Positions 219 through 30,519 of a stretch of 30,822 bases of DNA are shown piece after piece. Below the pieces are notes generated by a model. The model did not search any database, was not told where the DNA came from, and saw only the letters and a program-made list of their open reading frames with translations. Position 1 is the stretch's first letter. Each line of letters opens with the position of its first letter. The position numbers and the translations under genes are program-made. This stretch comes from an uncultured Acidobacteriota bacterium (GTDB lineage: Bacteria; Acidobacteriota; Vicinamibacteria; Marinacidobacterales; SMYC01), in assembly GCA_947259165.1 (NCBI GenBank), contig CAMYKY010000062.1, positions 1 through 30,822 on the forward strand, given 5' to 3'.

Positions 219-728
219 CTACTCCTCCAGATACAGTTCTTTTTTTAGCTTCGCCAGCTGCTCGGGGGTGAGAGATTGACTCTCTAGAATCTGGACGAGC
301 TGCTCTCGGTCACGAGCTACGGGACGGAAGCCGCAGCCGTCGAAGAACTCGGGGTTCGCTTGTTCGAGCAGGGGGTGCGGGTAGTCGCGGCACATACCGG
401 GGCGTGAGTCGTAGCTGTCGCAGCGTTTCGTGGATGTATCGAAGTGCGTGCACTTGAAAATGAACGCTTTGTCTTCGCGACGCGCTTCGATGAGCGCGAA
501 ACCATTCACCTTGTCGTGCCACCAGAGAAAGATTTGGCGGGCGAAAGGGAAGTACCAGATTAGATTGCCGACCTGAATCCCGGGTTGCTCGCAGCACTTG
601 GCGCAGCCGACGCACTCTCCGCCGAGCTCATAGCGGACGTCGGCCTGGCTGCGGTGAAGCCACAGTCGAACGTGATAAACGCCGAGGCCGAGCCGCTTGA
701 CGCTTCTTCGGAGCCGGCCGTCGTTCAT
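219..728 (-). CDS. YkgJ/UPF0153-family putative Fe-S or zinc-chelating protein (CxxCxxCC)
   Basis: 169-aa ORF with motif CVGCAKCCEQ followed by a second Cys cluster, CTHFD..RCDSYDSRPGMCRDYP, typical of the CxxCxxCC 'putative zinc- or iron-chelating' family. Its ATG overlaps the stop of the upstream AAA gene (ATGA at 725-728), suggesting translational coupling. Confidence 0.55.
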   Translation of the reverse strand: MNDGRLRRSVKRLGLGVYHVRLWLHRSQADVRYELGGECVGCAKCCEQPGIQVGNLIWYFPFARQIFLWWHDKVNGFALIEARREDKAFIFKCTHFDTSTKRCDSYDSRPGMCRDYPHPLLEQANPEFFDGCGFRPVARDREQLVQILESQSLTPEQLAKLKKELYLEE

Positions 729-2473
729 TGAAGAAGTGCGGCGATCTCCTGGATGCGGTGCTCGAGTGCCGGGGTTTTCTCGGGAGTGCCGAAGCGCTCG
801 CGCAGTTTTTCAGGGATGAACATGGGGTCCGTGCTCTCGCGGATCGCGACGAGCTGCTGAAGCTCTTTTTCGAGGCCGTAGTCAGGCGTTCGAAAGTGCT
901 CGAGGGTCTCGCGAATATGGTTGGCTGTGGGTGCATCCGCGCCAGCGATTGCGGCACGCCGCACGCATTGGACGAGGAGGCTCTCGATATCCGCGCCTGA
1001 GAGCTCCGGCGGTAGCGGAGGAAGATCGTTGTCGTCGATCTTGACGCCATTTTTGCGCGCCATCGCGAGGAACATGCTCTTGCGCGCGGCTTCGGTCTCA
1101 GGAGGGAAGAGCGGGATGTGGACTTCGCACCGTCCCTGGCGCTTCAAGTCGACGGGGAGCAGATCGGGACGGCACGTCAAGAGCATCCACACGATCTTGC
1201 CTCGGTACCGAGTGTCGCTCATGAGAGACGAGATCATCGCGAACATGCGGCTCGAGGTTCCGCTGTCGCCACCCGCGGCGCGGCTTCCCAACGCCGCATC
1301 CGCTTCGTCGATGACGACGACCACCGGGCCGAGGGCTTTGATCACCGATAAGACTTTCTGAAGATTTCCCTCGGAGCTCCCCACCCATTTGCTGCGCAGG
1401 TTCTTGAACACGAGAGTCGGGATCCCAAGACTTCCGGCGAGACACGTTGCCGTGAACGTCTTACCCGTTCCGATCACCCCGCAGAGTAAATAGCCCATCG
1501 GCAAGGCTTCGAGTCGGCCGTCTTTGAAGAGGCGAACATCTTGCTCGAGCCGCTGTCTCACCGCTTCCGGGACGACGACCGTCTCGAGGTCGTAGCTCGG
1601 AGCCACGAAGTCGACCAGGCCGAAGCATTGCTTTTCGATCAACTCCTTTTTGGCCTCACGAAGCCGTTCGAGGTCGACGCGTTTGCCTTTTCCCCCGGAG
1701 CTTCCGACGGCCTGCGAGAGTCCCACGAGCGTGAGTCCGTTGGCCTCACGAGCAACGTCACGAGCCGCTTTGACGTTATCGAACAACGTCTTTGCAAAAC
1801 GCTCGCGTGTCGGCTCATCCGGGAGATCGACCTCGACCTTGGAAATGAACGGATTCTCGACGAGACGGCGATTGACGTCGCCGAGTGCTTCGGCAACGAG
1901 ACAAAGCGTGACATCCGCGCCGCGGATGCCGGGATCGTTGGCCCAATTGAGGACTTTGATGAGATGGGTACCGAGCTCTCCGCTCAGCATCGAGCTATCT
2001 ACGGCAGGGGTAATGGTCTCGATGTAGCGGATGATGATGGCGAGGCCTTTGCGGCTCCCGTTTTCGGGCGCATCGACGAGTTTGTGAAGAATGTAGCGGT
2101 CCAAGAGCTCGAAGACGAGCTTGGGATCTTGGAGACGCGCGTTGGCGTAGCTCGTTCCGCTGATCAGATCGATGGCCTTGAGTGTCTTGTGGAAGTCCTC
2201 CTGCATAGCCGCGCGGCGGTCGCTGTTGCCGGGTGCGAGAAATCGGATGCCGCTTCCACGATCATAGGAAAGGACGATGTCGCGTTGGCCGAAGAGCTGG
2301 GTCGCGAGGTAGTGCTCGAGAGAAACGAACTCCTCGTTCGCCGCCAAGGCTGGGCAAGACACGAGGTCGTGGACGTTGCCGTGGAGCAGAAACACGCTCG
2401 CCGAACCGCCGACGTAGCGGGTCGCGAGCTCGCGCGCCCAATCGGGCGCGCCATCGCCCAGCGGGTTATTCAC
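725..2473 (-). CDS. AAA+ ATPase, classical AAA clade, with ~300-aa N-terminal domain of unknown function
   Basis: 582-aa ORF. Walker A is GVIGTGKTF, Walker B is VVVIDEADA, and the second region of homology is TCRPDLLPVDLKRQGRCEVHI (RPD..R.GR arginine-finger pattern of classical AAA such as Vps4, katanin and FtsH). Its start overlaps the pspA stop by 8 bp. Confidence 0.8.
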   Translation of the reverse strand: MNNPLGDGAPDWARELATRYVGGSASVFLLHGNVHDLVSCPALAANEEFVSLEHYLATQLFGQRDIVLSYDRGSGIRFLAPGNSDRRAAMQEDFHKTLKAIDLISGTSYANARLQDPKLVFELLDRYILHKLVDAPENGSRKGLAIIIRYIETITPAVDSSMLSGELGTHLIKVLNWANDPGIRGADVTLCLVAEALGDVNRRLVENPFISKVEVDLPDEPTRERFAKTLFDNVKAARDVAREANGLTLVGLSQAVGSSGGKGKRVDLERLREAKKELIEKQCFGLVDFVAPSYDLETVVVPEAVRQRLEQDVRLFKDGRLEALPMGYLLCGVIGTGKTFTATCLAGSLGIPTLVFKNLRSKWVGSSEGNLQKVLSVIKALGPVVVVIDEADAALGSRAAGGDSGTSSRMFAMISSLMSDTRYRGKIVWMLLTCRPDLLPVDLKRQGRCEVHIPLFPPETEAARKSMFLAMARKNGVKIDDNDLPPLPPELSGADIESLLVQCVRRAAIAGADAPTANHIRETLEHFRTPDYGLEKELQQLVAIRESTDPMFIPEKLRERFGTPEKTPALEHRIQEIAALLQ

Positions 2474-3221
2474 TGGATTCGGGCGTCGCCTGTTTCTGGG
2501 GACCGACAGTTTTCTCGCTCGGCTCCGAGGACGGCTCCGCGAGCCCCTGTTCGATCTTGAACTGCGCGAGGAGCTCCGAGGCTTCCGCTTGTTCAGCGGC
2601 TTGTTTCGCCTTGAGGTTGTCCAATCCCTGGTCGCTGAGATCGCCCGCGACCTTGGAGCGGGCTTTCGCTTTGTTGATCTGGTCGTCGACGCGGCTCATG
2701 ATCTCGCCGATGTCCGTCGACACGTCGAACGAGGTGTTGAGAGCACCAGCGGTCTCGGAGACTTCGGCGAGCGCGTTTTCCATTTGAAGCGCCGCCTTCT
2801 TTTTTTGCAGATCTTTCTTGGAGTTTCCGATCTCCTTCAGCGCGGCTTTCATCTTCAAGAGGTTGTTCTCGTAGTTTTCTTGGTGCTGCGCGAGCTGCTC
2901 TTTGTTGCTCTCGAGCTCGGTCTTGACCTGCGCCAGCTCGAGCGCGAGCTGCCCGGCCATCTCTTCCTGGTTTGCCTTCAGATGATTCTTGATCTGGCCC
3001 GTGAGGCTAGTGATACGGGAAGTCTCACTTTGGACCTGACCTTGCACTTTCAGCACCATCGCCTGATAGGTGATGAGTCCCTGCCGAGCCTCCTTCAGCC
3101 GCTCGGTAGCCTGCTGCAGCTTGGTGTCGGCGAGCGCGATGACGTGCTTGTCTTCCATCTCGGTGACGGACTTGTTAATCAAGGCATACCAGACGGCTTT
3201 GATGCGTGCGAAAAGCCCCAT
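2466..3221 (-). CDS. pspA: PspA/IM30 (phage-shock protein A / Vipp1 family, ESCRT-III superfamily)
   Basis: The protein from internal Met MGLFARIKAVWYALINKSVTEMEDKHV (252 aa) matches the PspA/IM30 N-terminus (MGIFSRF..INA..EK.EDP) and is a long coiled-coil. There is a strong RBS: AGGGAG lies 6 nt upstream of the ATG at 3221. The 144 aa further upstream in the same ORF are Ser/Arg/Thr-rich low-complexity sequence and lie in the palindrome-containing intergenic region. Confidence 0.85.
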   Translation of the reverse strand: MGLFARIKAVWYALINKSVTEMEDKHVIALADTKLQQATERLKEARQGLITYQAMVLKVQGQVQSETSRITSLTGQIKNHLKANQEEMAGQLALELAQVKTELESNKEQLAQHQENYENNLLKMKAALKEIGNSKKDLQKKKAALQMENALAEVSETAGALNTSFDVSTDIGEIMSRVDDQINKAKARSKVAGDLSDQGLDNLKAKQAAEQAEASELLAQFKIEQGLAEPSSEPSEKTVGPQKQATPESSE

Positions 3222-3330
3222 CACTGACTCCCTTCGATGAATACCGCTCTGGAGAATGGTAAAGAACTCGTTGCCAAGGCGCAACGTTGCAGGTGACGAA
3301 CCGAAACCAGAACTCGCGATCCTCTGCTTC

Positions 3331-3439
3331 TTAACGCAAAGTCGCCAAGGCGCAAAGACGCAAAGAAAAGATTGGCCGAGCGGTTCGGACGAGCCATCCA
3401 CCCCCTTTGCGCCTTCGCGCCTTTGCGACTCTGCGTTAA
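3331..3439. repeat. palindromic CGCAAAG-heptad element (35-bp arms, 39-bp spacer) in the pspA upstream region
   Basis: Left arm is TTAACGCAAAGTCGCCAAGGCGCAAAGACGCAAAG (3331-3365). Right arm is CTTTGCGCCTTCGCGCCTTTGCGACTCTGCGTTAA (3405-3439), the reverse complement with about 85% identity. A further GCCAAGGCGCAACG half-site lies at 3271-3290. A related copy is at 22519-22660 and a fragment at 13739-13754. Confidence 0.6.
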
Positions 3440-3498
3440 AGAACTTACGGTGTCGACTCGTCCCCAGTTGCGCGTGGGCGGCGCTGAGTGAGAGAACA

Positions 3499-6400
3499 TC
3501 ATGTTGCGGGCTCGTCGGTCCCAGGCTCTTCCTCGTCGGTGATGTTCGACAGCGCCGAGACGTTGATCTTCTCGAGCGCTTCCACGAGCTCGGGGATGTC
3601 GTCGACGTACTCGAGTTTGTTGATGAGCGCTTTGATCTTCGGATCGTCGACACCGCGGAATCCCCGAAAGCGATGGGCCATGAACCGCATTAACGGGATC
3701 AGCGTTCCTTCAATAAGGTAGGACTCGCGTGAAATGAGCTCGTAATCGGCCGGCGGCGCCTGCGGCTCTGGCGGCTCGGCGGAGGGGGCGAGCGCGCTTG
3801 CACGCCCATTGCCAAAGGCTTCGAGGAGCTCATGGAGCTTTTCGATATAAGGTCCGAGGTCGAGCTGGACATCAACCTGAGGTGCTGGGGCCGGCTCGGC
3901 GGCCGCGCTGGCAGCAAACGCGAGGTCCGGATCCACAGACGGCGGTACCGGGCGTGATGCTGCTTTCGCTGTCGCCCGGTCGATACTCTCTCCGATACTT
4001 TCAAGGTGCTCGGAAACCATGCTGAGCTGTCCGGTCAGACGTGTCGCGGGGTCGTCGTCGCCACCACCCATGCGCTGGATACGGACGAAGCCTTTCTTGA
4101 TATCCTCCCATCGGGCGCGCTGCGTATCCGTCAAGCGGGCTCGCATCTCGCCGAGCTTGAGGAGATTCTCTTCTGCACCGGTGGTGAGAGTTTGAGACTC
4201 ACCGAGGTAGTGGTCGTCGATGAGGTTTTCGAGCTCTTCGTCGTTCATCGCCGGGACAATCTTTTCAGTGAGCTTGTTCATGTTCCGGTAGCTGCCCTGC
4301 AGCCGGAACGGGGGTTCGGTGCGGTACGCGTCCTCCTGAGATGCGGAGCGGATGTATTGCTGGTTGACGGCTAGAAGTGTCTCCTGCACTTTCAGGAGTT
4401 TCTTCAACACGGATAGAATCTCGCCGATTTCGACCGCCGAGTAGCCGTGTTGGAGCTGGTCGCTCTGGACCGGCTCGCCTTGGGCCATGCGAACCAGCAT
4501 GACGATGTCGTTTTGCTCCCGCGTGGTCAGCGGCGCGAGCACTCCGTTCGACGTTAGAGAATTCTCGATATAGGACAAGGCGAAGAGGTCGCTCTTGCCT
4601 TCGAGAATATCGCCCAGGTTGTAGGTGTCGGCGCGATTGGCCAGCATGTCTGGAATCTGGAACTTTTCCCCGGACTCGGTGTACGGGTTTCCCGCCATAC
4701 AAACGACGAACTTCTTGCCCCGCAGATCGTAGGTGCGGGTGCGTCCTTTCCATACACCTTCGACCTTGCGTTGGGCATCGCACAACGAGATGAACTTCTG
4801 GAGGAACTCGGGATGGGTGTGTTGGATATCGTCGATGTAGAGGAGAACGTTGTTACCCATCTCGAACGCGAGATTGAGCTTTTCGATCTCTTGCCGTGCG
4901 GTGGCGTTACCGGCTTCGGCCGGATCGAGCGACGTCACCGAGTGGCCGAGGGCGGGCCCGTTGATCTTCATGAAGACGAGCCCGAGGCGGTTGGCCAGAT
5001 ACTCCATCAGCGTCGTTTTGCCGTAGCCCGGCGGTGAGATGAGAAGGAGCATGCCCATCAAGTCGGTACGCTTCGCTTCGCCGAGTGCGCCCATTTGCTT
5101 GGCGAGGTTGTCGCCGATCAACGGGAGGTACACGTCGTTGATGAGTCGATTGCGCACGAACGAGGACATCACCTTGGGCTTGTACTCGTCGAGACGCAGG
5201 ACGTCGCGCTCCCGATCCAACACGGCGTGCCGCGCTTTTTGGAAGTCGCGAAAGCCGGGGACGCGTCGGTACCGGAAATGGCCGAGACGTGACAGGAACT
5301 CATCGAGGTGGAGCTGCATGCGGCCCTGCTGGATCCGCGGGTGCTGTCCCAACAAACCCTCGATCGCGACTTTGGCCTGAGCACTCGAAGTTTCGCGGCT
5401 GACCTTGCCTTCGAACAGGATCGCGACAACGGTTTCTTGCGCGGCGCGGACCGGGCGGTCGTTCTTCTCGGCAAAAGTCGTTACCCACGCGAGCGCAACG
5501 TCATAGGCGCGCACCGGCGATTCTCGAAGTCCGCGAAGATCCTGTTCGAAGTCCCGCTCGGCGCCAGATTCTCGCAAGTGTTTATCGAAGGCTTGCTTGA
5601 GCTCGTCGGCTTCCGCACTGAGAACGAATTTCTGGGGCTCACGCGCGATCTCCTGGAGGAGATAAGCGCCCGCGACGCGCGCCGCCCGCTCAGGCACGTC
5701 GATGCCGAGCTCGGACAGATGTTCGACGATCGCCGCGTTGAGCTCGGTGCTGAGCTCGCTCAGCACGTCACTTTGTTCGAAGTGGATACGCAGGCGATGC
5801 AGGCTCTTCGCTTGGCTTTCCCACTCCGAGCGCTTCTTGCGGTCTGGAAACAACGCCCAAAACACCGTGGCGAGCGCTCGCGCTGTCGGTGTGAACCGCA
5901 GCAGGCCGGCACTTTCGTACATGCCGAGCATCTTCTGAAGAATCAGAGCCGCGTCGGCGTCGTGGAGACCGCGCTCGTATCCTTCGTCGTAGCGCTCGGC
6001 CGCGTAGTCCCGCACGGTTGCAAGAAGCTGCTTTTCGACCCGAGTTGCTTCGTGAAGCTTCGCGAGTGAGAGTCCTGCGTCGCCGATTTCAGCGTCTTCG
6101 AGAATGCAATACGCGAGGTATTCCGACCGGTAAACGTCATCGGTCTCGGAGACCAGCTCCTGGTCCCAGAACTCGCGCGTCTTGGAGAAGGCTTCGTCAG
6201 CGATCGCTTCGTAAAAGCCCGTGCCACTCAAGTGAAACGCCATCCCGTCGTCGCGGGGCACCATCGTTAGCTCGAGCGGTTGGGTATTGACGCTGAAGCG
6301 GTGGCGTCCAAACTTGATGACGTTGGCGCCGTCCTCGTAGATTTCCTGGCGATCGCGCAGGCCACGTGCTGCGTCTTCTTTGGCGGCTTTGAGCCGGCCA

Positions 6401-8895
6401 TCAATCTCGTCGGCATGGACCGAGTCGCCGAGCTCTCTCAGGTTGGCCGAGGTGCTTCGAAGCTTGGCGACCATGGGGTCGGCCGCGAAGTATGCGTTCA
6501 GATCGTCGGAGCTTTTGAACGTTTCGGCACGCCGGGTGACGCTTGCGAGAATGCGCTCCGCTGCCTGCATCAACGTCTGCGCTCGTCGTTGGCGCTGGTC
6601 CACGAGGGATTGCTTCTTGGAGCTGAAGGCTTCGTAAATCTCCTCGCGCTTGGTGGTGAGCTCGGTGACGAACTCGTCGAACTCGGAAAAGCGGGTTTCG
6701 AGGTCTTCGAGCTGCAGCATGAGCTTCGACAGCTGCTCGTCGCATTTCTCGGGAGAGCCCGACAGAGCGAGCGCGCTGGTAACGCTTTGGCTGAGGAGCT
6801 GGAACTGGACCCCGAACTCGGCGATGCCTTCTTTGCCGAGTAGCTCCTTCCGCCGGTTGGCGATGAGAGCCCGTACTCGGTTGAGGCTTCCCATGATCTC
6901 CGAGATGTTGCCGAGGATCTGTGTCCTCACCGTCGCATCTTCGATATCGAGCGAGCCGACGACATCGGTCAATAGATCGAGGCTGTCGCCGAGCTCCTGA
7001 AGGGACTCCTGATGTTCGTTGGCTTCGGTGACTTTTGCTAGGCCCGGAACCATTTCTTCGAGCTCGGCCGCTCGCAGGTGGTAGGGAACCAGTGCCTCGG
7101 CCTTCAACAGGAAGTCGACGGCGCGCTGGCTCACAGTATCGAACCGCTCGACGATCTCTGCCTCGAGAGCATCGATATTGTCGAGGTCGACGTAGCGTAC
7201 CTCGCGCAAGGTAATGAGATGGCCGCGGGCCGAGCGCAAGCTGGCGAGACAGGCGACGAACTGATCGATCGACGTCCACGAGTCGGGATAGATGTTGCGG
7301 AAAATATCTTGAACTCTCTCGGCAGATTCGGCAAGCGCTTTTGTCGCGTCGGCGCGCAGCGCTTCGACTTTCTCGAATTCGTCAATGATGCTCTCGGCGG
7401 TGGCGTGAACTTCGTTCAGGACTACACGTAGGTTGCCGATCTCGGCGTTGTCGAGCCAGTAGTAGCTGTCGATCACCCGCTCGGTCGCAGAGACGATGTC
7501 TTCGTACTTTTGTCGGGTGGGCTGCTGCTCGTCGACCATGCGCCGGATGGAGAGGCAATCCGAGACGCCGCGGACGAGCTCGGCGTTGCCGACTTTCTCG
7601 AGAAACGACCCGGTCGGCGGAAGGGCTTTCACGTGGTCGTCACTCATGAACGGCGTGCGCCACAGCTGCATGTTGTGGACGCGCTTGGGCTCGTCGGTGT
7701 CGGCGCGAAAGATGATGACGGTGCCGTCGGGAAAGAGGCTGAACCCGTGGCAGTTGAGAGGATTGTCGACTTCCTTCCGGATCATGTTGTACGGCAGCAA
7801 AATGGTGCGCCCAGAGGCTCGCTCATGAAACGCGTAGAGCACGTCCTCACCGTTGGGTGAGCGGATACGGCGCAAAAACTCCATCCCCTCGATTTCGCGG
7901 TCGAACGATTTGGTGTGACCGCTTTGAAGGTAATAACCGCCGGGGAAAATGATGCCGTGGTCTTCAGGAAGCTGGACGCACGCATGACCGATGGCGTCGA
8001 TCCGATCGACCTGATGGGTCCGAGTGTTGAACACGAGGTAGCGGTACTCGGTCTCACGGTAGGGAAGGACCTTGAGCAGAATGAGGGTTCCCACTTTGGC
8101 GTAGTGGACCTCGGCGTCGTCGAGCGCCTGGTCGGCATCGATCACCGGCTCTTGATAGATGCCTTGGCCGTCCTCCGTGTTGTTCTCGACCTTGATGGTG
8201 AAATCGCCCCCGAGCGTCTCCACGAAGACTTCGTCGAGAATGTTGACGTGGGGGAAACGGCCTGCGATGTGGTCTTCGCGCGCTGTCGTCGTCCATTCGA
8301 AGTCGTGTGTCGGAGGGAATACGTGGTCGCGCTCGCCGCGGTTGTCGATATAGCTGACGGCGCCATCCGGGGTCATGGCCCAGCGAAAGACGCGAACATC
8401 GGTGATCTTTTCGCCGATCTGGAACACCGCGAGGAGCTTGTCGCCGACGGTCCTCAGCTGGAGCAGTCGGGTTTGAGCGTAATATTGATAGAGCTCCTTG
8501 AACTCCTCGACGAACTTGGGATCGGAGAGGAAGTAGGCGGGCGAGTCTTTGGCGACAGCGTGCAACGTGATGCCGTCGTCGGTTTTGTCGAACGTGTGCA
8601 GGCTGAAAACGTCGTCGACGTGCGTCTCGCGCTTGAGGCCGATGAAAACGTTGTAGCCGAAGAGGAGGCGGTTGCCGACCTCCTTGATATCCCGGGGAAC
8701 GCAGTTGTTTTCGGTGCGGATCCGTTCGTTGCCCAGGACTGCGAGCTCGGTGCCGCCGAAGAGCTCGAGGCGTTTCTTGTTGAGGCTATCCGCCCGCTCG
8801 GCCAGCGTTTTACCGTGGCCGAGAAGGCGGTCTCGAATAATCTCGTAAGTGCCGCGCTCGATCTCGGGTTTTTGAGTGTCAGGACTGGTGCTCAT
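3499..8895 (-). CDS. giant (1798 aa) multidomain protein with internal AAA_5 (MoxR/McrB/dynein-like) ATPase module
   Basis: Uninterrupted 5.4-kb ORF. Around aa 1285-1440 (about nt 4560-5050) lie Walker A LISPPGYGKTT, Walker B NVLLYIDDIQH and sensor-1 FVVCMAGNPY. Long predicted helical and coiled-coil stretches precede the ATPase, and an Ala/Pro-rich linker plus a ~80-aa C-terminal domain follow it. RBS AGGTG lies 7 nt upstream of the ATG, and there is only a 10-nt gap after the flotillin stop. Confidence 0.85.
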   Translation of the reverse strand: MSTSPDTQKPEIERGTYEIIRDRLLGHGKTLAERADSLNKKRLELFGGTELAVLGNERIRTENNCVPRDIKEVGNRLLFGYNVFIGLKRETHVDDVFSLHTFDKTDDGITLHAVAKDSPAYFLSDPKFVEEFKELYQYYAQTRLLQLRTVGDKLLAVFQIGEKITDVRVFRWAMTPDGAVSYIDNRGERDHVFPPTHDFEWTTTAREDHIAGRFPHVNILDEVFVETLGGDFTIKVENNTEDGQGIYQEPVIDADQALDDAEVHYAKVGTLILLKVLPYRETEYRYLVFNTRTHQVDRIDAIGHACVQLPEDHGIIFPGGYYLQSGHTKSFDREIEGMEFLRRIRSPNGEDVLYAFHERASGRTILLPYNMIRKEVDNPLNCHGFSLFPDGTVIIFRADTDEPKRVHNMQLWRTPFMSDDHVKALPPTGSFLEKVGNAELVRGVSDCLSIRRMVDEQQPTRQKYEDIVSATERVIDSYYWLDNAEIGNLRVVLNEVHATAESIIDEFEKVEALRADATKALAESAERVQDIFRNIYPDSWTSIDQFVACLASLRSARGHLITLREVRYVDLDNIDALEAEIVERFDTVSQRAVDFLLKAEALVPYHLRAAELEEMVPGLAKVTEANEHQESLQELGDSLDLLTDVVGSLDIEDATVRTQILGNISEIMGSLNRVRALIANRRKELLGKEGIAEFGVQFQLLSQSVTSALALSGSPEKCDEQLSKLMLQLEDLETRFSEFDEFVTELTTKREEIYEAFSSKKQSLVDQRQRRAQTLMQAAERILASVTRRAETFKSSDDLNAYFAADPMVAKLRSTSANLRELGDSVHADEIDGRLKAAKEDAARGLRDRQEIYEDGANVIKFGRHRFSVNTQPLELTMVPRDDGMAFHLSGTGFYEAIADEAFSKTREFWDQELVSETDDVYRSEYLAYCILEDAEIGDAGLSLAKLHEATRVEKQLLATVRDYAAERYDEGYERGLHDADAALILQKMLGMYESAGLLRFTPTARALATVFWALFPDRKKRSEWESQAKSLHRLRIHFEQSDVLSELSTELNAAIVEHLSELGIDVPERAARVAGAYLLQEIAREPQKFVLSAEADELKQAFDKHLRESGAERDFEQDLRGLRESPVRAYDVALAWVTTFAEKNDRPVRAAQETVVAILFEGKVSRETSSAQAKVAIEGLLGQHPRIQQGRMQLHLDEFLSRLGHFRYRRVPGFRDFQKARHAVLDRERDVLRLDEYKPKVMSSFVRNRLINDVYLPLIGDNLAKQMGALGEAKRTDLMGMLLLISPPGYGKTTLMEYLANRLGLVFMKINGPALGHSVTSLDPAEAGNATARQEIEKLNLAFEMGNNVLLYIDDIQHTHPEFLQKFISLCDAQRKVEGVWKGRTRTYDLRGKKFVVCMAGNPYTESGEKFQIPDMLANRADTYNLGDILEGKSDLFALSYIENSLTSNGVLAPLTTREQNDIVMLVRMAQGEPVQSDQLQHGYSAVEIGEILSVLKKLLKVQETLLAVNQQYIRSASQEDAYRTEPPFRLQGSYRNMNKLTEKIVPAMNDEELENLIDDHYLGESQTLTTGAEENLLKLGEMRARLTDTQRARWEDIKKGFVRIQRMGGGDDDPATRLTGQLSMVSEHLESIGESIDRATAKAASRPVPPSVDPDLAFAASAAAEPAPAPQVDVQLDLGPYIEKLHELLEAFGNGRASALAPSAEPPEPQAPPADYELISRESYLIEGTLIPLMRFMAHRFRGFRGVDDPKIKALINKLEYVDDIPELVEALEKINVSALSNITDEEEPGTDEPAT

Positions 8896-8905
8896 ACGTT
8901 AGCAC

Positions 8906-10969
8906 CTAGAGCCTGACGTCGTCGATACCGAGCGCCTTCGCTTGACGCTGGAGTTTCTTGAGCTTCTCCAGGTCGTCTCCTCCCGTTCCAGTGTCCGTGG
9001 CGAGCTTCGCCAGAAGCGCTCCGATGGTGATGTCTTTCAAGGTTCCACCGTCGACGCCGGACTCTTTCAGCGTCTGGCGTATCTCCTTAATGATGTTCTT
9101 GTCGCCGTTCATGTAGTCCTTGGCGAGACCGGAGATCACGTCGCTCTTGTCGATGAGCTCGTCGATACCCTTGCCCATGCCGATGGAGTTCACCATGCGG
9201 TCGAGAAACGCACCGTCGCCGCCGACGATATCGATGTCGGCGGATTCGAGCGCTTTGGAGAGAATCTGGGCCTTGTGCTCCGCGACGTTCTCACGTGCCT
9301 GGATCGCTTCGAGTCCGAGTATTTTCTCGTTCTCGAGACGCAGGCGGTACTCTTCGTGCTCGCGGCTGTCCTTGTCGAGTTCTCGCATCGCCTGGGCTTT
9401 CGCGGCAATGCCTTTTGCTTCGGCGGCGAACTTGTCGCCGATCGCGTGGGCCGTGGCCGTACCTTTCTCGTGAACGACTGCGGCTTCCGCGATCCCGACC
9501 TTCTCCACTACCGCGGCGTCGGCTTCGCGAACGCGAACCTCGGCGAGTCCGTGCTTCTCGGTGGCGACAGCATCCGCTTCCTTCACACGGGCGGCAGCGA
9601 GACCTTCCGCCGCGGATTCAGCCTGGACACCTTCGGCGATCCGAATCTTCGACTTGGCTTCACGGTCGGCGGCTTCGAGCTCGGCGTCCGCCAGGGTGAC
9701 ACGCTCGACGGCCTTGTGCTTCGCGGCCTGCTCCTGAGCTTCGGCGGCCTTGATGTCCTTAACGAGCGCTTCTTCGGCCTCGGCTTCGGCGCCGATGATC
9801 ATTGCGGACTTGGCGCGCTTCGCTTCCTCGACGACCTGAACCTCTTTGATCCGCTCCTGCTCCTCGACGACGGTGCGCTCGACGGCGACCCGCTCGCGGA
9901 TGACGTCTTGAATTGCTTTGCGCTCGACCTCGAGAGCCTTTTCCTTGTCGATCCGCATGAGCTCGACCTCACGCTCTCGATTCACGGCTTCGAGCTGGCG
10001 GTCTTTGTCGACACGCTCGGTCTCGACTCCGATGACTCGCTCGCGGTTTTTCTGCGCGACCTGGACTTGTCGGTTCTTGTTCTCTTCCGCGACCTGGACT
10101 TCTTCGTCGGTCTTGATGCGGGCACCCTCGGATTTCAGCCGTTCCTCCGCCTGAACTTGCATCAGCGTTGCGGTTTCTCGTGCACGGACGGATTCGATCT
10201 CACGTGTTTGCTTGGACTGAGCGTCGGCTTCTTCACGATCCAGCTCGAGAATGACCTTCGCCCGTTCCACGTCTTGCTTCTTGATTGCTTTTTGTTCGTT
10301 GTTCTCGAACTCGTTGGTTTGAATGTGCTCCACCGCCGTGAGCTCGGTGATCCGACGGATACCCTGGGCATCGAGGATGTTCTTGGGGTCGAGATGGGCG
10401 ATGGGCGTCTGCTCGAGGTAGTCGATCGCCGCGTCTTCTAGGACGTAGCCGTTGAGGTCGCGTCCGATGATCTCGATGATAGCGTCGCGAAATTCGTCGC
10501 GTTTGGTATAGAGATCGACGAACTCGAGCTGTTTGCCGACAGTTTTCAAAGCTTCGGAGAATTTGGCGCTGAAAAGCTCGTCGAGGGTTTCGGGAGACGA
10601 AGCGCGGGCGCAGCCGATGGCTTGAGCGACCTTGATCACGTCTTCGACGCGTTTGTTGACGCGCACGAAGAACGTGACCTTGATGTCGGCCCGAATATTG
10701 TCGCCGCAGATCAGACCATCCTTGCTGCGACGGTCGATCTCGATGGTTTTGACCGAGATATCCATGACCTCGGCTTTGTGGATGACTGGAAGCACGAACG
10801 CGCCGGTGAAGGTCACTTCGGGCTCGCGTTTCATTTTGTTGACGACGAGCGCTTTGCCCTGTTCCACCTTGCGGTAGAACTTGGACACCATCATCAAGAA
10901 TCCCCAACCCATGATGATGAGGGCAAAGGCGCCTACGACGCCGAGAACGATCAGGTCCATCATCTGCAT
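8906..10969 (-). CDS. flotillin (SPFH/band-7 domain, FloT/YuaG-like)
   Basis: 687 aa with an N-terminal TM helix, an SPFH region and the long Glu/Ala-rich flotillin repeat region (AEAEAEEAL.., EAAVVHEKG..). The true start may be the 3rd Met (10963), which has GGGG 9 nt upstream. Confidence 0.9.
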   Translation of the reverse strand: MQMMDLIVLGVVGAFALIIMGWGFLMMVSKFYRKVEQGKALVVNKMKREPEVTFTGAFVLPVIHKAEVMDISVKTIEIDRRSKDGLICGDNIRADIKVTFFVRVNKRVEDVIKVAQAIGCARASSPETLDELFSAKFSEALKTVGKQLEFVDLYTKRDEFRDAIIEIIGRDLNGYVLEDAAIDYLEQTPIAHLDPKNILDAQGIRRITELTAVEHIQTNEFENNEQKAIKKQDVERAKVILELDREEADAQSKQTREIESVRARETATLMQVQAEERLKSEGARIKTDEEVQVAEENKNRQVQVAQKNRERVIGVETERVDKDRQLEAVNREREVELMRIDKEKALEVERKAIQDVIRERVAVERTVVEEQERIKEVQVVEEAKRAKSAMIIGAEAEAEEALVKDIKAAEAQEQAAKHKAVERVTLADAELEAADREAKSKIRIAEGVQAESAAEGLAAARVKEADAVATEKHGLAEVRVREADAAVVEKVGIAEAAVVHEKGTATAHAIGDKFAAEAKGIAAKAQAMRELDKDSREHEEYRLRLENEKILGLEAIQARENVAEHKAQILSKALESADIDIVGGDGAFLDRMVNSIGMGKGIDELIDKSDVISGLAKDYMNGDKNIIKEIRQTLKESGVDGGTLKDITIGALLAKLATDTGTGGDDLEKLKKLQRQAKALGIDDVRL

Positions 10970-11003
10970 CCCCCTATCCGAAATTGTCCAAAACTGAAAA
11001 GGC

Positions 11004-11846
11004 TCACGACTCCTCCGTGATCTTCACGGCTTCCGTGAGCGCGGCGTCCACCGGGCCGATGAAGAAGATCCCTTCGGACGGCTCGTAGCGGTAGACGAGT
11101 GCCTGAGTGCCACGTTTTAGATCGTTGTTCTGAGGGCAGCGCACCTCGGCGACAAAGCCCGCGCCACCGTCTTCGATCTCGGCTCGGCCGAATTGTTCGT
11201 CGACGCGCGCCGATAGAACCGTGCACAGCTTCCCCACGAGTGATGCTCGGCGAGGTGCTTGTTGAGTTACGAAGAGTCTTCGGAAAGGCCTCGAGGTCAG
11301 GGCCGCCATCACTAGAGCGCCGAAGCCGGAGGCGACGGCGATGGTGAGACCGGCGAGAAACGTCGCCGCCATGGGGCCCAAGAATCTCGTGGCTAGATAG
11401 CTGATAATCCAAGCCCAGAAGATCGCGAACGTTCCCACGATGGTGATCGGAACGCCGCGTACACCCATGGCGTTCAATATGCCGGACAGGAGGCCACCAC
11501 TGTGTCCGTCGGCCGCCTCCGCCGCACCCTCCGCCGCCGCACCCTCAGCGACTCCCTCAGCGACTCCCTCAGCGACTCCCTCAGCGACTCCCTCAGCGAC
11601 TCCCTCAGCGACTCCCTCAGCGACTCCCTCGAGGGCACCATCCATCACTCCGTCCGCAACGCCGTCGAGGGACTCGATTGCCCCGTCGAATGCAGCGTCC
11701 ATGGAGTCCAGCCCGAGGATGGTGTCGAGGAAGTCGATGTCCAGCGCCCCGAAAATCACCACGAGCCAGTAAAGGAGCGCCATCGCCAGGGCGCACGTGA
11801 ACACGATTGTTGGAAACGACACGAGCGTGGTGAGGAATTCCTGCAC
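11004..11846 (-). CDS. NfeD/YuaF-like membrane protein (C-terminal OB-fold NfeD domain) with internal (GVAE)n repeat
   Basis: Proposed GTG start at 11846 with GGAG 8 nt upstream. The N-terminal portion of the track ORF (11847-12107) looks non-coding. The protein has TM helices flanking a GVAE x7 repeat. The C-terminal soluble segment LVGKLCTVLSARVDEQFGRAEIEDGGAGFVAEVRC..GTQALVYRYE fits the NfeD beta-barrel pattern. Its position immediately upstream of flotillin matches the conserved nfeD-flotillin pair. Confidence 0.65.
   Translation of the reverse strand: MQEFLTTLVSFPTIVFTCALAMALLYWLVVIFGALDIDFLDTILGLDSMDAAFDGAIESLDGVADGVMDGALEGVAEGVAEGVAEGVAEGVAEGVAEGVAEGAAAEGAAEAADGHSGGLLSGILNAMGVRGVPITIVGTFAIFWAWIISYLATRFLGPMAATFLAGLTIAVASGFGALVMAALTSRPFRRLFVTQQAPRRASLVGKLCTVLSARVDEQFGRAEIEDGGAGFVAEVRCPQNNDLKRGTQALVYRYEPSEGIFFIGPVDAALTEAVKITEES
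11545..11628. repeat. perfect 7 x 12-bp tandem repeat (TCAGCGACTCCC) inside the NfeD-like CDS
   Basis: Seven identical units with no synonymous variation, flanked by degenerate copies (11521-11544). On the coding strand they encode (GVAE)7. The repeat is in-frame (12 = 4 codons). Confidence 0.9.
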
Positions 11847-12034
11847 GCTTTCAGCTCCTTTCGACTGACGAGTCGCGGATCGGTCGGTTCGATGACGTGC
11901 CGACGACGCGACAATTAGGCTAAGAGAAGCCTCTCCCGTTCGACAGAAAGCTATCGCTACGCGAGAACCGTGGTTTCGGTTGTAGTTGTGCCGGTTGTGG
12001 TGGTCCGGGCCCTTTGGCTCGAACTCTGCCACCA

Positions 12035-12064
12035 ATAATAAAGCAAACCGGGGCGAAAAATCAA
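12035..12064 (-). promoter_or_regulatory. candidate sigma70-type promoter for the minus-strand six-gene cluster (TTGATT-N18-TATTAT)
   Basis: Read on the minus strand, TTGATT (12064-12059) is followed after 18 nt by TATTAT (12040-12035). This gives a ~180-nt 5' UTR to the GTG at 11846. It is a sequence match only. Confidence 0.25.
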
Positions 12065-12257
12065 GCGCGCATCCAGCGTTTTGCGTCTTCCGGTCACCCG
12101 TGTCCAAGACGTTGTTGCGGTTGTGAAAAGCACAGAGTTTCTTTATGTGTTGTCAGCGGGTGAGCTTCGGACGTGTATAAATTCCTATTCAACAGTGCAT
12201 TGGGGAAGCGTGGTGGCTGAATGCGCGAACGCAGAGTTGCGAATCGGTATTTTCGTC

Positions 12258-12286
12258 TTGACACCAGGAGGGCGCGTCCGTAGTAT
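12258..12286 (+). promoter_or_regulatory. near-consensus sigma70 promoter TTGACA-N17-TAGTAT, divergent from the flotillin cluster, driving the leuB leader
   Basis: TTGACA at 12258-12263, a 17-nt spacer, then TAGTAT at 12281-12286. A ~357-nt leader follows before leuB. Confidence 0.4.
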
Positions 12287-12504
12287 GAGTCTACCCAACA
12301 CAACTAGAGAAAATCGTTATAATTTATGCATTTTGCTTGTGCTTCCAACAAAGGCATATCGCCAGGGGTCCGCATAAGGCCTGTTCATTTTTCATGCCGG
12401 GCCTACCATCCATCGACCGAACCCGCTAATTTATCCTGCAATATCATTAACCTCGTCCTTACAACTCCACATACATAATCCCTGGTAGCTTTTGTTGGGA
12501 CACT

Positions 12505-12528
12505 GGGGGGCGTCTTCGGGCGCCCCCC
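12505..12528 (+). terminator. stable 10-bp GC stem with UUCG tetraloop in leuB leader; candidate attenuator or sRNA 3' end
   Basis: GGGGGGCGUC-UUCG-GGCGCCCCCC followed by GCCCUCUUUCUGG, a weak, interrupted U-tract. Confidence 0.3.
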
Positions 12529-12562
12529 GCCCTCTTTCTGGGCGCACGTTCGCGCGCTAGTG

Positions 12563-12593
12563 CGGTTATCGGCGGTCGGTTATCGGTTATCGG
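12563..12593. promoter_or_regulatory. three closely spaced GGTTATCGG direct repeats 60-90 bp upstream of leuB
   Basis: GGTTATCGG occurs at 12564-12572, 12578-12586 and 12585-12593, immediately before a TTGACC hexamer (12596-12601). Confidence 0.35.
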
Positions 12594-12649
12594 TCTTGAC
12601 CTGATGTTAGCGTTCTCTCCTCGTCGGCTTTCGTGGTAATAATCTCGGC

Positions 12650-13822: not shown

Positions 13823-14281
13823 CTATTTTTTTGCGGCCTTAGCTTTCAGCTTCTCGTCGATGAAATCCCCATGTGGGACGTGCAGCAGCTTCGCGACTTT
13901 GCGGATTAGGTATTCTTCGCGTTCTTCGAGGCGATCGTCGCTGAACGCGACTTGCCACAGCAGTCCGACGATGTGCTTTTTCTGCTCCGGCGTGAAGCTG
14001 GCGTCGACGAGGCGGGTGAACTCGTACAACGAGATCGCCTCGTCAACTTCTTGCTCGGCGAGGGCAATGATGTCGCGAGTCTCGTCCTCGGTGATGCCGA
14101 AACCCGAGCGAAGCGCCTCTTCGATCGCGAGTTTCTCTTCTTCCCCGACCTCGAAGTCCGCACGCGAGACTTCGATCAGCAGCGCCGCGGTGGCGAGTCT
14201 TTGTGCGTGCTCCATCGAGGCGGGGGTCGTCTCCTCGGTCACGATGCGAGCGTAGAAAAATTCCTGAATCGTTCTAATCAA
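13823..14281 (-). CDS. TerB-like (tellurite-resistance TerB family) small acidic protein
   Basis: 152 aa with two TerB-like repeats: AALLIEVSRADFEVGEEEKLAIEEAL and VGLLWQVAFSDDRLEEREEYLIRKVAKLL. Confidence 0.45.
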   Translation of the reverse strand: MIRTIQEFFYARIVTEETTPASMEHAQRLATAALLIEVSRADFEVGEEEKLAIEEALRSGFGITEDETRDIIALAEQEVDEAISLYEFTRLVDASFTPEQKKHIVGLLWQVAFSDDRLEEREEYLIRKVAKLLHVPHGDFIDEKLKAKAAKK

Positions 14282-14285
14282 TTTC

Positions 14286-15917
14286 TCAAACCTCGGCCGT
14301 CTTGGCGCCGGCTCTCATACGGTCCTGCGTGTAAACGGAAATCGCTCCGAAGCCCCATAAGGCGATCGCAGCCGGTACGACGAACTCCAAAATCGGAATC
14401 GACTTCGCCACCATGACCAGAAACAGCCCAAGGGCGAAGCGAATCAGGCCTGCGCTTGCGCTCGTGGGTGTCCCCAGTATCTCGCGACCAATGTAGGCCG
14501 CGACGAAGACTTGTGCAACGTAGAGGCCGACGCCGAGGACGAACAGCGTCGTCAGTCCGAGCGGGGCGCCGACGACCGTGATGGTGACGAAACCGCCGAG
14601 CACGAACAGAATCACCGTGGAGAGGACACCGTAGACGAAGCTTCTGCCGTATTCGGGTACGTGTTTCGTGATGATCACTTCGCTCGCCTCCGGCATCAAG
14701 AGGATGATGACGCTGCCGAAGATGAACGCCGCGGTCCAGAAATAGAAAAACGCCGTCACCCAGGAGATGACGGGACGCTCATGATCTTCCTCCTCCACTC
14801 GCTCGAACACGATCGGCGAGCCTAGCTCGGCTTGGGGGTCGACCTCAGCTTCTTTGGGTCCGTAGTACTTCGTGGTGCCGCCGATCGCGCCTTCGGGGCC
14901 GATCGACAGGCTCTCCGCGGCAACGAGCACCGAGCCGCTGACCCGGGCGCGGATCTCGGTCGTCTTGGCGGCGACGATGATGTCGCTCGGGACCGGGGCG
15001 TCGAAGAATACCTCGCGTCCCGCGGCGATCACGCTGCCGCCGAGGTTCGAGCCGCTGGAGAATCGAAGCGTTCTTCCCGCCGAGGTTACGTTCCTGGCGA
15101 CGTCGCCTTCGATCTCCAGCCGCATTGAGGCAGTGCGGACGCTACCGCCGACGCGGCCCGCTATCTCGATGCTTTCAGCAAAGCCGAGGACGTCGCCGCG
15201 AACCTCACCGGTGATTTGAACGATACTTGCGGCGACAATTAGGTCGCCGTTGATGGTCCCCTCGATGCGGATTTCTTTTCCCTTGATGATGAGGTCCGTC
15301 TCGATCACCTCTCCCGCTCGAAGGGTATACACATCGGCGTCGAGCTCGATGACCGCGGCCGTTGCTCGAGCGGCGGGAAGAACAACTCCGCCCAGGACCA
15401 AGAGCATCAGCGAGAACGACGCCGCGGACGAGCGCCAACGACGCCAGGTCCGATGAGCGATAAAACCGGCAAGGGCGAGCGAGGCGAGTAGCACCACTCC
15501 CTGGATGAATTTCATCAACATATCTGTCCAGCCGCTCCATAGAAGACTTTGAATCAAGACGCTGGTGGCAACGCTCGCGCCGTCTAGGCCTACGGTCTCC
15601 ATGCCGTCGACCACGGGTGCGACATAGCGTGTCCATAGCGACGACACGCCGAGCGTGCCGAAGATGAGCATGGCCACGAGGACCCACGAGATGTCAGCGT
15701 GCCGTGGTCGGATGTGATCGGGTAGCGCCTCGGCGTGCTCGTGCACCGCGGCCCGTAGGAGCTCGGTCTCTGCTTTCAAGGCTTCGTACCCCGCGCGACA
15801 CCTGGCGCATTCGATCAGGTGGGTACGAGTCGCATCCTCGCGATCCCTCGACAACTCTCCCTCGGCGAGCCTCATGATTGTCAGCTCGTCGACATGCTTC
15901 ACATCAGATGCGCTCAT
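14286..15917 (-). CDS. zinc-finger (HxxxCxxC) anti-sigma factor with extracytoplasmic beta-helical bactofilin/DUF4097-like repeats and C-terminal polytopic membrane domain
   Basis: 543 aa. The N-terminus carries H..C..C (HLIECARCR), as in ZAS-type anti-sigma factors. Internal TM helices are followed by repeated G.V.G..I.I.G.V beta-helix-like units (EIRIEGTINGDLIV.., EIEGDVARNVTS..). Four or five C-terminal TM helices follow. The start overlaps the sigma gene stop (ATGA). Confidence 0.7.
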   Translation of the reverse strand: MSASDVKHVDELTIMRLAEGELSRDREDATRTHLIECARCRAGYEALKAETELLRAAVHEHAEALPDHIRPRHADISWVLVAMLIFGTLGVSSLWTRYVAPVVDGMETVGLDGASVATSVLIQSLLWSGWTDMLMKFIQGVVLLASLALAGFIAHRTWRRWRSSAASFSLMLLVLGGVVLPAARATAAVIELDADVYTLRAGEVIETDLIIKGKEIRIEGTINGDLIVAASIVQITGEVRGDVLGFAESIEIAGRVGGSVRTASMRLEIEGDVARNVTSAGRTLRFSSGSNLGGSVIAAGREVFFDAPVPSDIIVAAKTTEIRARVSGSVLVAAESLSIGPEGAIGGTTKYYGPKEAEVDPQAELGSPIVFERVEEEDHERPVISWVTAFFYFWTAAFIFGSVIILLMPEASEVIITKHVPEYGRSFVYGVLSTVILFVLGGFVTITVVGAPLGLTTLFVLGVGLYVAQVFVAAYIGREILGTPTSASAGLIRFALGLFLVMVAKSIPILEFVVPAAIALWGFGAISVYTQDRMRAGAKTAEV

Positions 15918-16468
15918 GGTCCCAACCTCGTCCTCAAGGCACGCCGTGCTCTCAGCAACAACACGCCGGCGAAATTGCTCGAGATACCGAGCACTTCACC
16001 GATCTCCGCGTAGCTCATCTCCGCGAAGTAGCGGAGGATGACCACCAAGCGAGTACGGTCGTCGAGAGTTGCGATGGCGCGGCGAATACTCCGCTTGCTC
16101 TCGTTGATCAGAACCGCCTCTTGGGGCGTCGGCGCTTCCGCTTCGAGCTTCGCGATCTCGTCTTCTGAGTCGTCCAGCTCGGGGCGTCGGCGTCTTTTTC
16201 TGAGCTCGTCCCAGCAATGGTTCGCAGCGACCCGGTAGAGCCAAGGCGCGAACGGGCGGGAGTCATCGTATTGAGACAGCCGCAGCCGGGCTCGGAGAAA
16301 AACCTCTCCGGTCGCATCCTCGGCGTCCTGCCGCGTCGGCAGGGCTCTCCGACAAAGCCTGAAAATGGAAGGTGCCATCATTCGATAGATCTCCGCCCAA
16401 GCTTCGGAATCCCCGTCGCCGGCCCCTCGGGCCAAGCTCGCCAGGTCTTCTTCGCTCGACATTCCCAC
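15914..16468 (-). CDS. ECF (group IV) RNA polymerase sigma factor
   Basis: 184 aa. Region 2 is PWLYRVAANHCWDELRKRR. Region 4 HTH is LRYFAEMSYAEIGEVLGISSNFAGVLLLRARRAL. Confidence 0.85.
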   Translation of the reverse strand: MGMSSEEDLASLARGAGDGDSEAWAEIYRMMAPSIFRLCRRALPTRQDAEDATGEVFLRARLRLSQYDDSRPFAPWLYRVAANHCWDELRKRRRRPELDDSEDEIAKLEAEAPTPQEAVLINESKRSIRRAIATLDDRTRLVVILRYFAEMSYAEIGEVLGISSNFAGVLLLRARRALRTRLGP

Positions 16469-30388: not shown

Positions 30389-30519
30389 GGGCAGAGGTCG
30401 CGCGTACGGTCAGCCGCATCTTAGCGGGCCGCGACGCGTAGATTGCGGCAGTGCGAGGAGTGATCGGCTGAGGGATAATGCCTTTCCTCTGTGCGGCGGC
30501 CGCTTTTCCTCGACAGAAC

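Follow-up and report, generated by a model that had tools for sequence, protein, structure and literature searches.

Two widely conserved membrane-stress modules, a flotillin/giant AAA+ trio and a PspA/tandem AAA set, adjoin in a narrow lineage of Acidobacteriota

Introduction

A 30,822-nucleotide (nt) stretch of DNA from an uncultured Acidobacteriota bacterium (contig CAMYKY010000062.1; referred to here, at its full length, as the window) carries six neighboring genes for a YqiJ/YuaF-type membrane protein, a flotillin, a giant AAA+ protein, a PspA-family protein, a tandem AAA ATPase and a cysteine-rich protein with a CxxCxxCC motif. An earlier note on this DNA, made from the sequence alone, had proposed that the six genes are an undescribed system that encodes a composite membrane machine. 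The question raised by the locus is whether its genes do belong to one machine, or whether two separate systems have come to lie next to each other.

Our analyses point to the second answer. The region probably consists of two autonomous, widely conserved membrane-stress modules placed back to back, with the first three genes (the flotillin trio) forming module A and the last three module B. The two are adjacent only in one narrow lineage. The most likely reason for this adjacency is that the modules are co-regulated or cooperate in repair under envelope stress, and not that they form an obligate six-subunit machine. What is new at this locus is the lineage-restricted juxtaposition of two described modules and not an undescribed six-part system, as both halves are already described computationally in a recent study (Ravi et al., 2024; PMC11237479).

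Conservation of the Two Modules

The distribution of the two gene sets in other genomes carries this reading. For module A, 80 loci with the giant gene (L001–L080) were taken from species-representative genomes of Myxococcota, Actinomycetota, Gammaproteobacteria, Acidobacteriota, Planctomycetota and a Clostridia-labelled metagenome-assembled genome (MAG), and their open reading frames (ORFs) were searched with the six window proteins. The genes for the YqiJ-like protein, the flotillin and the giant protein had one order and one strand in 72 of the 80 loci; among the other eight, seven were cut by contig ends and one (L030) had an insertion. Module A is thus conserved in its own right, in a near-universal order across at least six phyla. 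Neither the window's type of PspA nor the CxxCxxCC protein was found in any of the 80 loci, a pspA gene followed the giant gene in none, and the tandem AAA protein matched only a distantly related protein in L064 and, weakly, one in L034. The expectation in the earlier note that the giant gene would recurrently lie between floT and pspA consequently found no support outside the window's lineage (0/80). The first gene 3' of the giant gene varied among the 71 loci where it was recorded (rhomboid in six, PLD in three, TelA in two); no partner recurred, and the families listed did not include PspA. As a side observation, the genes following the giant AAA+ gene are often membrane-related (rhomboid protease, PLD-like phospholipase, TelA).

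Module B showed the same independence. The tandem AAA protein has thousands of homologues, and 80 metagenomic loci were surveyed, 60 of which had usable upstream sequence. A PspA gene was immediately 5' of the tandem AAA gene in 26 of these 60 and within ~5 kb in 12 more, with ABC transporter and PBP/OmpA genes between, while no PspA was seen in the other 22, many of which had short flanks. The flotillin trio was near the tandem AAA gene in none of the 80 metagenomic loci, and the CxxCxxCC gene occurred in two of the 60, only where the AAA protein was at least 68% identical to that of the window. Module B is therefore also conserved in its own right.

Fusion of the two modules was found on only three further contigs, all of the same lineage, with the order kept over ~72–89% protein identity. 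Two of them (L081 and L083) have all six genes and the same flanks, a divergent leuB upstream and a DUF502 gene downstream, and the third (L082) has five of the genes followed by IS66; the giant proteins of the three are ~72–81% identical to that of the window. This recurrence with the same flanks demonstrates that the arrangement is not due to chance within its lineage. Two additional contigs (L085 and L086), whose AAA proteins are 68–69% identical to the window's, have the same flanks without the trio, in the order sigma70-DUF8173-TerB-leuB and then PspA-AAA-CxxC-DUF502. Since module B occupies the same chromosomal slot there without the trio, the two halves are separable. Named homologues were from Vicinamibacteria (69%) and from Thermoanaerobaculia and Acidobacteriota (~60%).

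A separate observation concerns L064, in a Planctomycetota MAG (JAQIBG010000068.1), where at 3894–6759 a distant tandem AAA gene lies head to head with a flotillin trio. Its first AAA domain (D1) reads LTGNIHD and its second (D2) has GAGKT and DEAD motifs. A 279-aa coiled-coil protein is encoded 5' of it, with a PspA-like amphipathic N-terminus and a PF04012 match at only E 0.078; comparison with a PspA-clade profile by hhalign was too insensitive to be informative, as even Escherichia coli YjfJ scored about zero. L064 may represent a second, independent juxtaposition of a tandem AAA gene with the trio.

Relation to Described Systems

Each module has close counterparts in the literature. Ravi et al. 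(2024) describe an operon for a YqiJ/YuaF protein, a band-7/coiled-coil/flotillin protein and a beta-propeller/coiled-coil/AAA+ protein (e.g., ANH61663.1), which are the same three families in the same order as in module A. According to the same study, a CesT/Tir-PspA dyad often precedes the flotillin operon, PspA-less short forms are widespread, and a PspA gene is paired with one for an "inactive classical AAA + classical AAA" protein (AEY64321.1, OGG56892.1). Module B likewise has PspA beside a tandem AAA protein with a dead N-terminal domain, and two of our loci (L087 and L089) match the longer dyad operons, with PBP/OmpA and ABC transporter genes, published there.

Experimental information comes from Pseudomonas aeruginosa, in which bacABCDEF is one operon by reverse-transcription PCR, has a predicted sigma-54 site, and influences biofilm formation, rhamnolipid secretion and virulence; bacA is of the DUF2170/YjfI family and bacB of PspA_IM30 (PMC10948618). 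Judging from synteny in other Pseudomonas, and not from any statement in that paper, BacC to BacF would be the products of the remaining trio-operon genes and BacE the giant protein.

The bac operon and the flotillin operon of Ravi et al. resemble the window in having a PspA-family gene within the cluster. However, the PspA of that type is YjfJ-like, is encoded 5' of the trio and is accompanied by a CesT/Tir-like YjfI, whereas the window's PspA is Vipp1-like, is encoded 3' of the trio and, unlike the PspA of the described clusters, is accompanied by its own tandem AAA and CxxCxxCC proteins. Relative to the PspA-AAA dyad of Ravi et al., the window's dyad differs in having gained the CxxCxxCC gene, which is present in close relatives only, and in abutting the flotillin trio. 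Searches with E. coli YjfI and YjfJ matched 16 and 15, respectively, of the 80 trio loci, all in Gammaproteobacteria and with the dyad directly 5' of the trio. The same queries found neither protein among those of the window, where the trio is preceded by ~800 nt of noncoding sequence and then leuB.

A third combination was identified on the plasmid pQBR103, in which PspA/IM30, rhomboid and YjfKLMC-like genes precede the trio. This 425-kb plasmid of P. fluorescens SBW25 (L173; NC_009444.1, 85112–97641) has genes for PspA/IM30, rhomboid, DUF2491, DUF350 and DUF1190 proteins and a glutathionylspermidine-synthase-like gene, followed by YqiJ-like, SPFH and "DNA repair ATPase" genes, a combination in which a yjfJKLMC-like polyamine operon is fused to the flotillin trio.

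Other known pairings share single features with the cluster. In yuaF-floT and yqiJ-yqiK, as in the window, an NfeD-like gene precedes the one for the flotillin. HflK/C-FtsH pairs an SPFH scaffold with an AAA+ enzyme, as does module A, but the giant AAA+ protein has neither a protease domain nor a transmembrane (TM) segment, and the window's flotillin is YqiK-like and not HflK/C-like. In Bacillus subtilis, the SPFH protein YdjI is reported to localize PspA (PMC8581546), so recruitment of PspA by an SPFH protein has a precedent, although the window's flotillin is YqiK-like and not YdjI-like.

Proteins of Module B

The PspA of the window scored 35.1 bits against PF04012, barely over the gathering cut-off of 33.9, with residues 2–226 aligned to positions 1–219 of the 220 in the profile, and it aligned over its full length with the solved Vipp1 of Synechocystis, sll0617 (8qfv, 7o3w; phmmer E 1.1e-5, residues 1–248 on 1–237). 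Its proposed membership of the PspA/IM30 family, and with that of the ESCRT-III superfamily, is supported by these matches.

All but one of the PspA proteins encoded beside a tandem AAA gene have a common motif in their C-terminal tail, [FY][EKR]x[EQDS]xG[LM]xxP followed by K.LGP, which in the window reads FKIEQGLAEPSSEPSEKTVGP (FKIEQGLAEP...KTVGP; residues 221–241, nt 2499–2561). Of 47 AAA-linked PspA ORFs, 46 have it, down to ~30% identity, and the other is frameshifted. Only three of 26,368 other ORFs of the fetched loci have it, and it is absent from E. coli YjfJ and from all 15 YjfJ-type proteins compared. The motif appears to be new and is not mentioned in the passages of Ravi et al. (2024) that were consulted.

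The tandem AAA protein was assigned to the AAA family with confidence (PF00004, E 1.4e-21), although the label "classical AAA" in the earlier note captures only part of its architecture. An alignment of 23 homologues showed that in the first domain LHGNVHD replaces Walker A, leaving a degenerate P-loop, while the second has Walker A (GTGKT, 335–339), Walker B (DEAD, 389–392), a pore loop (KWVG, 362–365) and the arginines R435, R445 and R448. In a profile search of the PDB, VAT, Afg2 and p97 (1e-34 to 1e-30) and Cdc48 came out on top, and an AlphaFold2 (AF2) model with a predicted local distance difference test (pLDDT) score of 80 matched p97/Cdc48/Drg1 over ~600 columns in Foldseek (E ~1e-17). 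By alignment and model, the 582-aa ATPase is thus a Cdc48-like tandem AAA protein with a dead first domain, and its second domain looks active, given the intact Walker A and B motifs, the pore loop and the putative arginine fingers.

The pore loop of Vps4 is SKWMG, and ESCRT-III proteins have MIM motifs in their C-terminal tails. The window's pair resembles ESCRT-III/Vps4 (CdvB/CdvC) in that a gene for a predicted polymer protein of the ESCRT-III superfamily adjoins one for a classical-clade AAA protein with an aromatic pore loop (SKWVG in the window), and in that its PspA also has a conserved C-terminal tail. Comparison with the MIM motifs makes this tail a candidate recognition peptide for the tandem AAA protein. 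Unlike Vps4, the window's ATPase has a D1/D2 tandem nearest to VAT, Afg2 and p97, and no MIT domain was found. Membership of the Vps4/CdvC family was considered and rejected, as the protein lacks MIT, its N-terminal half is AAA-like, its nearest solved relatives are VAT, Afg2, p97 and Cdc48, and it scores 30 bits against the CdvC model, whose cut-off is 650. The PspA-tandem AAA pair would accordingly be described as an analogue of ESCRT-III/Vps4 and not as a member of that family. Two reviews note that a Vps4-like ATPase appears to be absent from bacteria (PMC7619361, PMC10936438).

The product of the last gene exceeded the cut-off of PF03692 (28.7 versus 23 bits), which bears out its proposed identity as a YkgJ-type CxxCxxCC protein. 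All seven related sequences compared have the same eight cysteines (C39, C42, C45, C46, C93, C103, C113 and C132). No TM segments were detected by hydropathy in the PspA, tandem AAA, CxxCxxCC or giant proteins.

Proteins of Module A

The first gene product had been called NfeD-like, which holds in the broad sense only. PF01957 (NfeD) gave no match at E up to 10, whether with the full protein or with its C-terminal half alone, and none at E up to 0.01 with 34 orthologues, one of which matched PF21001 (YqiJ_N). The relationship to E. coli YqiJ emerged from profile-profile comparison, with the 34-orthologue profile giving an hhalign probability of 94% (E 1.2e-7, 131 columns); phmmer with E. coli YqiJ did not match the window protein. 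The top PDB match, although weak (E 0.26), was the C-terminal domain of YuaF (2K14), and hydropathy showed three hydrophobic segments. These comparisons identify the protein as a YqiJ/YuaF-type flotillin partner with three TM segments (3TM).

The second gene product is a flotillin, as had been proposed, with an SPFH/Band_7 domain (PF01145, E 2.4e-11, residues 34–178) that was detected when the N-terminal 254 residues were searched alone; the full-length protein had no Pfam match at all. It matches E. coli YqiK (phmmer 6e-37) and has a single TM segment (residues 6–24, hydropathy), followed by the Band_7 domain and then by an extended coiled coil rich in Glu and Ala.

The giant protein was previously called an AAA_5 protein. 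It does contain an AAA+ core (residues ~1283–1408, nt 4672–5049), but its main Pfam matches are DUF3686 (E 1e-212, residues 31–479, nt 7459–8805) and DUF7902 (residues 600–684, nt 6844–7098), the latter followed by a long helical region, and the core's AAA_5 score (25.3 bits, cut-off 22) is below its AAA score (PF00004, 32.5 bits), both being marginal. The DUF3686 match represents the putative beta-propeller. The residues invariant among homologues include Walker A (GYGKT, 1290–1294), DD at 1355–1356, N1403 and R1421. No TM segment (hydropathy) or protease domain (Pfam) was found. Its homologues, which form >6000 clusters and retain 55–60% identity between phyla, have the database names "DNA repair ATPase" or "MoxR-like ATPase". 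Our literature search found no functional study of this giant "DNA repair ATPase" family and no mention of DUF3686 or PF12458.

Gene Layout and Regulatory Sequences

ORF calling placed all six genes on the minus strand (Table 1) and verified the tight junctions that had been reported. The YqiJ-like and flotillin genes are separated by 34 nt, the flotillin and giant genes by 10 nt, and the giant and pspA genes by 277 nt. The pspA and tandem AAA genes overlap by 8 nt (2466–2473), an overlap also kept in L081 and L083, and the tandem AAA and CxxCxxCC genes overlap by 4 nt (ATGA, 725–728), which is kept in L081, L083 and the trio-less L085 and L086. As both overlaps are conserved, module B is predicted to be translationally coupled.

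Table 1. Features of the six-gene cluster and its intergenic regions in the window.
Feature	Coordinates	Strand	Size	Remarks
YqiJ/YuaF-type (NfeD-like) 3TM membrane protein	11004..11846	-	280 aa	Module A, gene 1
Flotillin-type SPFH protein	8906..10969	-	687 aa	Module A, gene 2
Giant protein	3499..8895	-	1798 aa	Module A, gene 3; predicted soluble
Inter-module spacer	3222..3498	-	277 nt	Hairpins and TTACnAT box
PspA/Vipp1-family protein (ESCRT-III superfamily)	2466..3221	-	251 aa	Module B, gene 1; from PspA-compatible ATG
Tandem AAA ATPase	725..2473	-	582 aa	Module B, gene 2
CxxCxxCC (YkgJ/UPF0153-type) protein	219..728	-	169 aa	Module B, gene 3; putative Zn- or Fe-binding
Divergent intergenic region, module A to leuB	11847..12649		~800 nt	

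The upstream limit of the cluster required correction. The first gene had been given an end at 12107, where TTG is the longest possible start, but GTG 11846 is preceded by an AAGGAG ribosome-binding site and agrees with the starts of orthologues, and is most likely the true start. The cluster therefore spans 219–11846, leaving ~800 nt of intergenic sequence up to the divergent leuB; the corresponding region in L081 is of similar length (786 nt). The promoter of module A is presumably within this region. A sigma-70-like site was noted at 12064–12035 (minus strand), although the promoter and terminator scan of the cluster gave site counts no higher than shuffled sequence. Other observations on this unusually long region are a GC-rich hairpin at 12504–12529 and the lack of any Rfam match.

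The palindrome reported in the 277-nt gap before pspA was located as a near-perfect hairpin of ~110 nt at 3331–3440, whose arms have two mismatches in 23 nt, a degree of pairing that none of 100 shuffles reached. The fold energy of the whole spacer is -122 kcal/mol (z = -5). The corresponding spacers of the three relatives are 94, 73 and 64 nt and all lack the large hairpin, which is therefore an insertion specific to the window. With arms of ~35–45 nt, it looks like a palindromic insertion resembling a repetitive extragenic palindrome (REP) or a miniature inverted-repeat transposable element (MITE). The sole Rfam match of the cluster, of mir-627 to this hairpin, was dismissed as spurious (38 bits, cut-off 86). 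A second, small terminator-like hairpin is at 3269–3286. In addition, a TTACnAT box lies ~35–40 nt 5' of the pspA ATG and is kept also in L085 and L086, and from this conservation with or without the trio pspA has probably retained its own promoter.

A Model for the Two Modules and Its Alternatives

The data above show what the genes are, that each module is conserved, that the two can be separated and that their fusion is confined to one lineage; the mechanism outlined next is inferred throughout. The flotillin of module A would be anchored in the membrane with its SPFH and coiled-coil parts on the cytoplasmic side, and the giant protein would dock onto this scaffold and remodel it or its clients. 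PspA would polymerize on damaged membrane, possibly recruited by flotillin domains, e.g., in the way that YdjI acts in B. subtilis. Potentially, a hexamer of the tandem AAA protein threads PspA subunits, leading to disassembly of the polymer and recycling of its subunits as Vps4 does with ESCRT-III, and the C-terminal tail peculiar to this PspA clade may be where it engages PspA. For the CxxCxxCC protein we envisage an accessory role confined to the lineage, e.g., as an adaptor or as a redox or metal sensor.

PspA-family modules have joined the same trio repeatedly and independently, and cooperation is therefore plausible, as is functional coupling of flotillin-type and PspA-type modules in general, judged from their genes. 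This part of the composite machine proposed in the earlier note stands, whereas the idea of a six-part assembly is not supported, given the outcome of both synteny surveys and the separability of the modules in the sister lineage. A closer association within this lineage, with flotillin scaffold and PspA polymer united in a single membrane-repair supercomplex that has a separate AAA+ motor for each, the giant protein remodeling flotillin assemblies and the tandem AAA protein recognizing the PspA tail and extracting subunits, is possible but doubtful. If true, the tandem AAA protein and PspA would be a genuine bacterial counterpart of ESCRT-III/Vps4 that is wired to an SPFH platform.

Several results weigh against our preferred reading of two autonomous modules or against the roles assigned to their parts. 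In neighbor-joining trees of the AAA protein and of PspA, which have no support values, the trio-less contigs are nested within the trio-bearing group; the fusion may be ancestral in the clade and have been lost secondarily in the trio-less lineage, implying some selective maintenance. The 64–94-nt spacers of the relatives fit read-through co-transcription, and thus a tighter unit than two modules. As the PspA tail motif was derived from the very sequences used for its counts, only its specificity is evidence. The absence of an MIT domain from the tandem AAA protein in Pfam searches is a further difficulty. Finally, the giant AAA+ core matched only the P-loop of Rix7, p97 and RuvB in the PDB profile search, and its AF2 model, from a shallow alignment, has a pLDDT of 66 and weak, mixed Foldseek matches (RuvB, NorQ/CbbQ, MCM, ClpB; E ~1e-3).

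Among other explanations, one integrated six-protein membrane-remodeling machine, encoded by a single operon and with both motors and both scaffolds in one complex, survives best, although we judge it unlikely. Such a machine would account for the six co-directional genes, the short inter-module spacers of the relatives and the gene order that is kept on four contigs over 72–89% identity, and it would be in line with the independent fusions of PspA-family genes with the same trio elsewhere and the possible second tandem AAA-trio juxtaposition in L064. It is difficult to reconcile with the finding of the two modules together in none of the loci of either survey (0/80 and 0/80) and with a sister lineage that has module B alone in the same slot, and the conserved box upstream of pspA and the very stable hairpin in the 277-nt spacer between the window's halves also argue against it.

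At the other extreme, a rearrangement may have united two unrelated stress modules that inertia then kept together, with no functional link between them. The rarity of the fusion, which is confined to one lineage, the sister lineage without it and the palindromic insertion at the window's junction are all compatible with this explanation. We nonetheless consider it improbable in view of the maintenance of strand and order across ~72–89% protein identity and the experimental precedent for SPFH-PspA cooperation in B. subtilis (PMC8581546). Chance is also hard to invoke for the association of this one trio, in unrelated bacteria, with at least three different kinds of PspA-type module.

It is very improbable that the cluster is an anti-phage defense island in which the tandem AAA protein is an IetA-like ATPase. 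The basis for that suggestion is a set of weak matches to IetA/IteA-like AAA proteins (50 bits in PADLOC; 48.9 bits in NCBIfam, where the cut-off is 510), which are far under family level, and no gene for an IetS protease lies in the cluster. PADLOC gave no match for the flotillin, YqiJ-like and CxxCxxCC proteins and coiled-coil noise for PspA and the giant protein, the flanks, including leuB, are of a housekeeping nature, and the giant gene was in none of 50,697 phage records and in 13 of 72,556 plasmid records, mostly of megaplasmids. This reading was rejected on the low IetA-like scores, the missing IetS and the lack of meaningful PADLOC matches. The remaining proposal, that the giant protein is a DNA-repair ATPase in a cluster unrelated to membranes, as in the Pfam text for DUF3686 ("ATPase involved in DNA repair"), the NCBI name ("DNA repair ATPase") and weak RuvB-like matches across its P-loop, is scarcely credible and was rejected, since Pfam revealed no nuclease, helicase or DNA-binding domain, the RuvB similarity spans only ~45–70 residues round the P-loop, the gene is preceded by 3TM and flotillin genes in 72 of the 80 loci, and the literature searched does not mention DUF3686 or PF12458.

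Significance

The locus is of value chiefly because it draws attention to two large families, the giant AAA+ proteins associated with flotillin and the Cdc48-like AAA proteins associated with PspA, and for neither did we find a functional study. The constant pairing of the former with flotillin suggests that the name "DNA repair ATPase" is misleading. How PspA/Vipp1 polymers are disassembled is an open question, for which the PspA-tandem AAA dyad, common in metagenomes, is a testable candidate, and the clade-specific PspA tail offers a concrete peptide for testing. The window provides one natural case in which this dyad is directly behind the flotillin/giant AAA+ trio and, together with the gammaproteobacterial YjfJ-type fusions, argues that SPFH platforms and ESCRT-III-like polymers have repeatedly been brought under common control.

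Flanking Sequences

Beyond leuB, genes for an extracytoplasmic function (ECF) sigma factor, a 543-aa bactofilin-like membrane protein and TerB are at 13823–16468 on the minus strand of the window. The membrane protein corresponds to DUF8173 in the relatives, and the ECF sigma/TerB set is partly kept in L081, L082 and L085/L086. This set of sigma factor, membrane protein and TerB may be an envelope-stress regulator of the neighborhood. On the other side of the cluster, the sequence 3' of the CxxCxxCC gene (1–218) contains the palindromes cctctcccccgtgggggagagg, and the DUF502 gene of the relatives would lie beyond the end of the window. Further away, the G+C content reaches ~0.70 at 29000–30400, a region with several overlapping long ORFs on the two strands.

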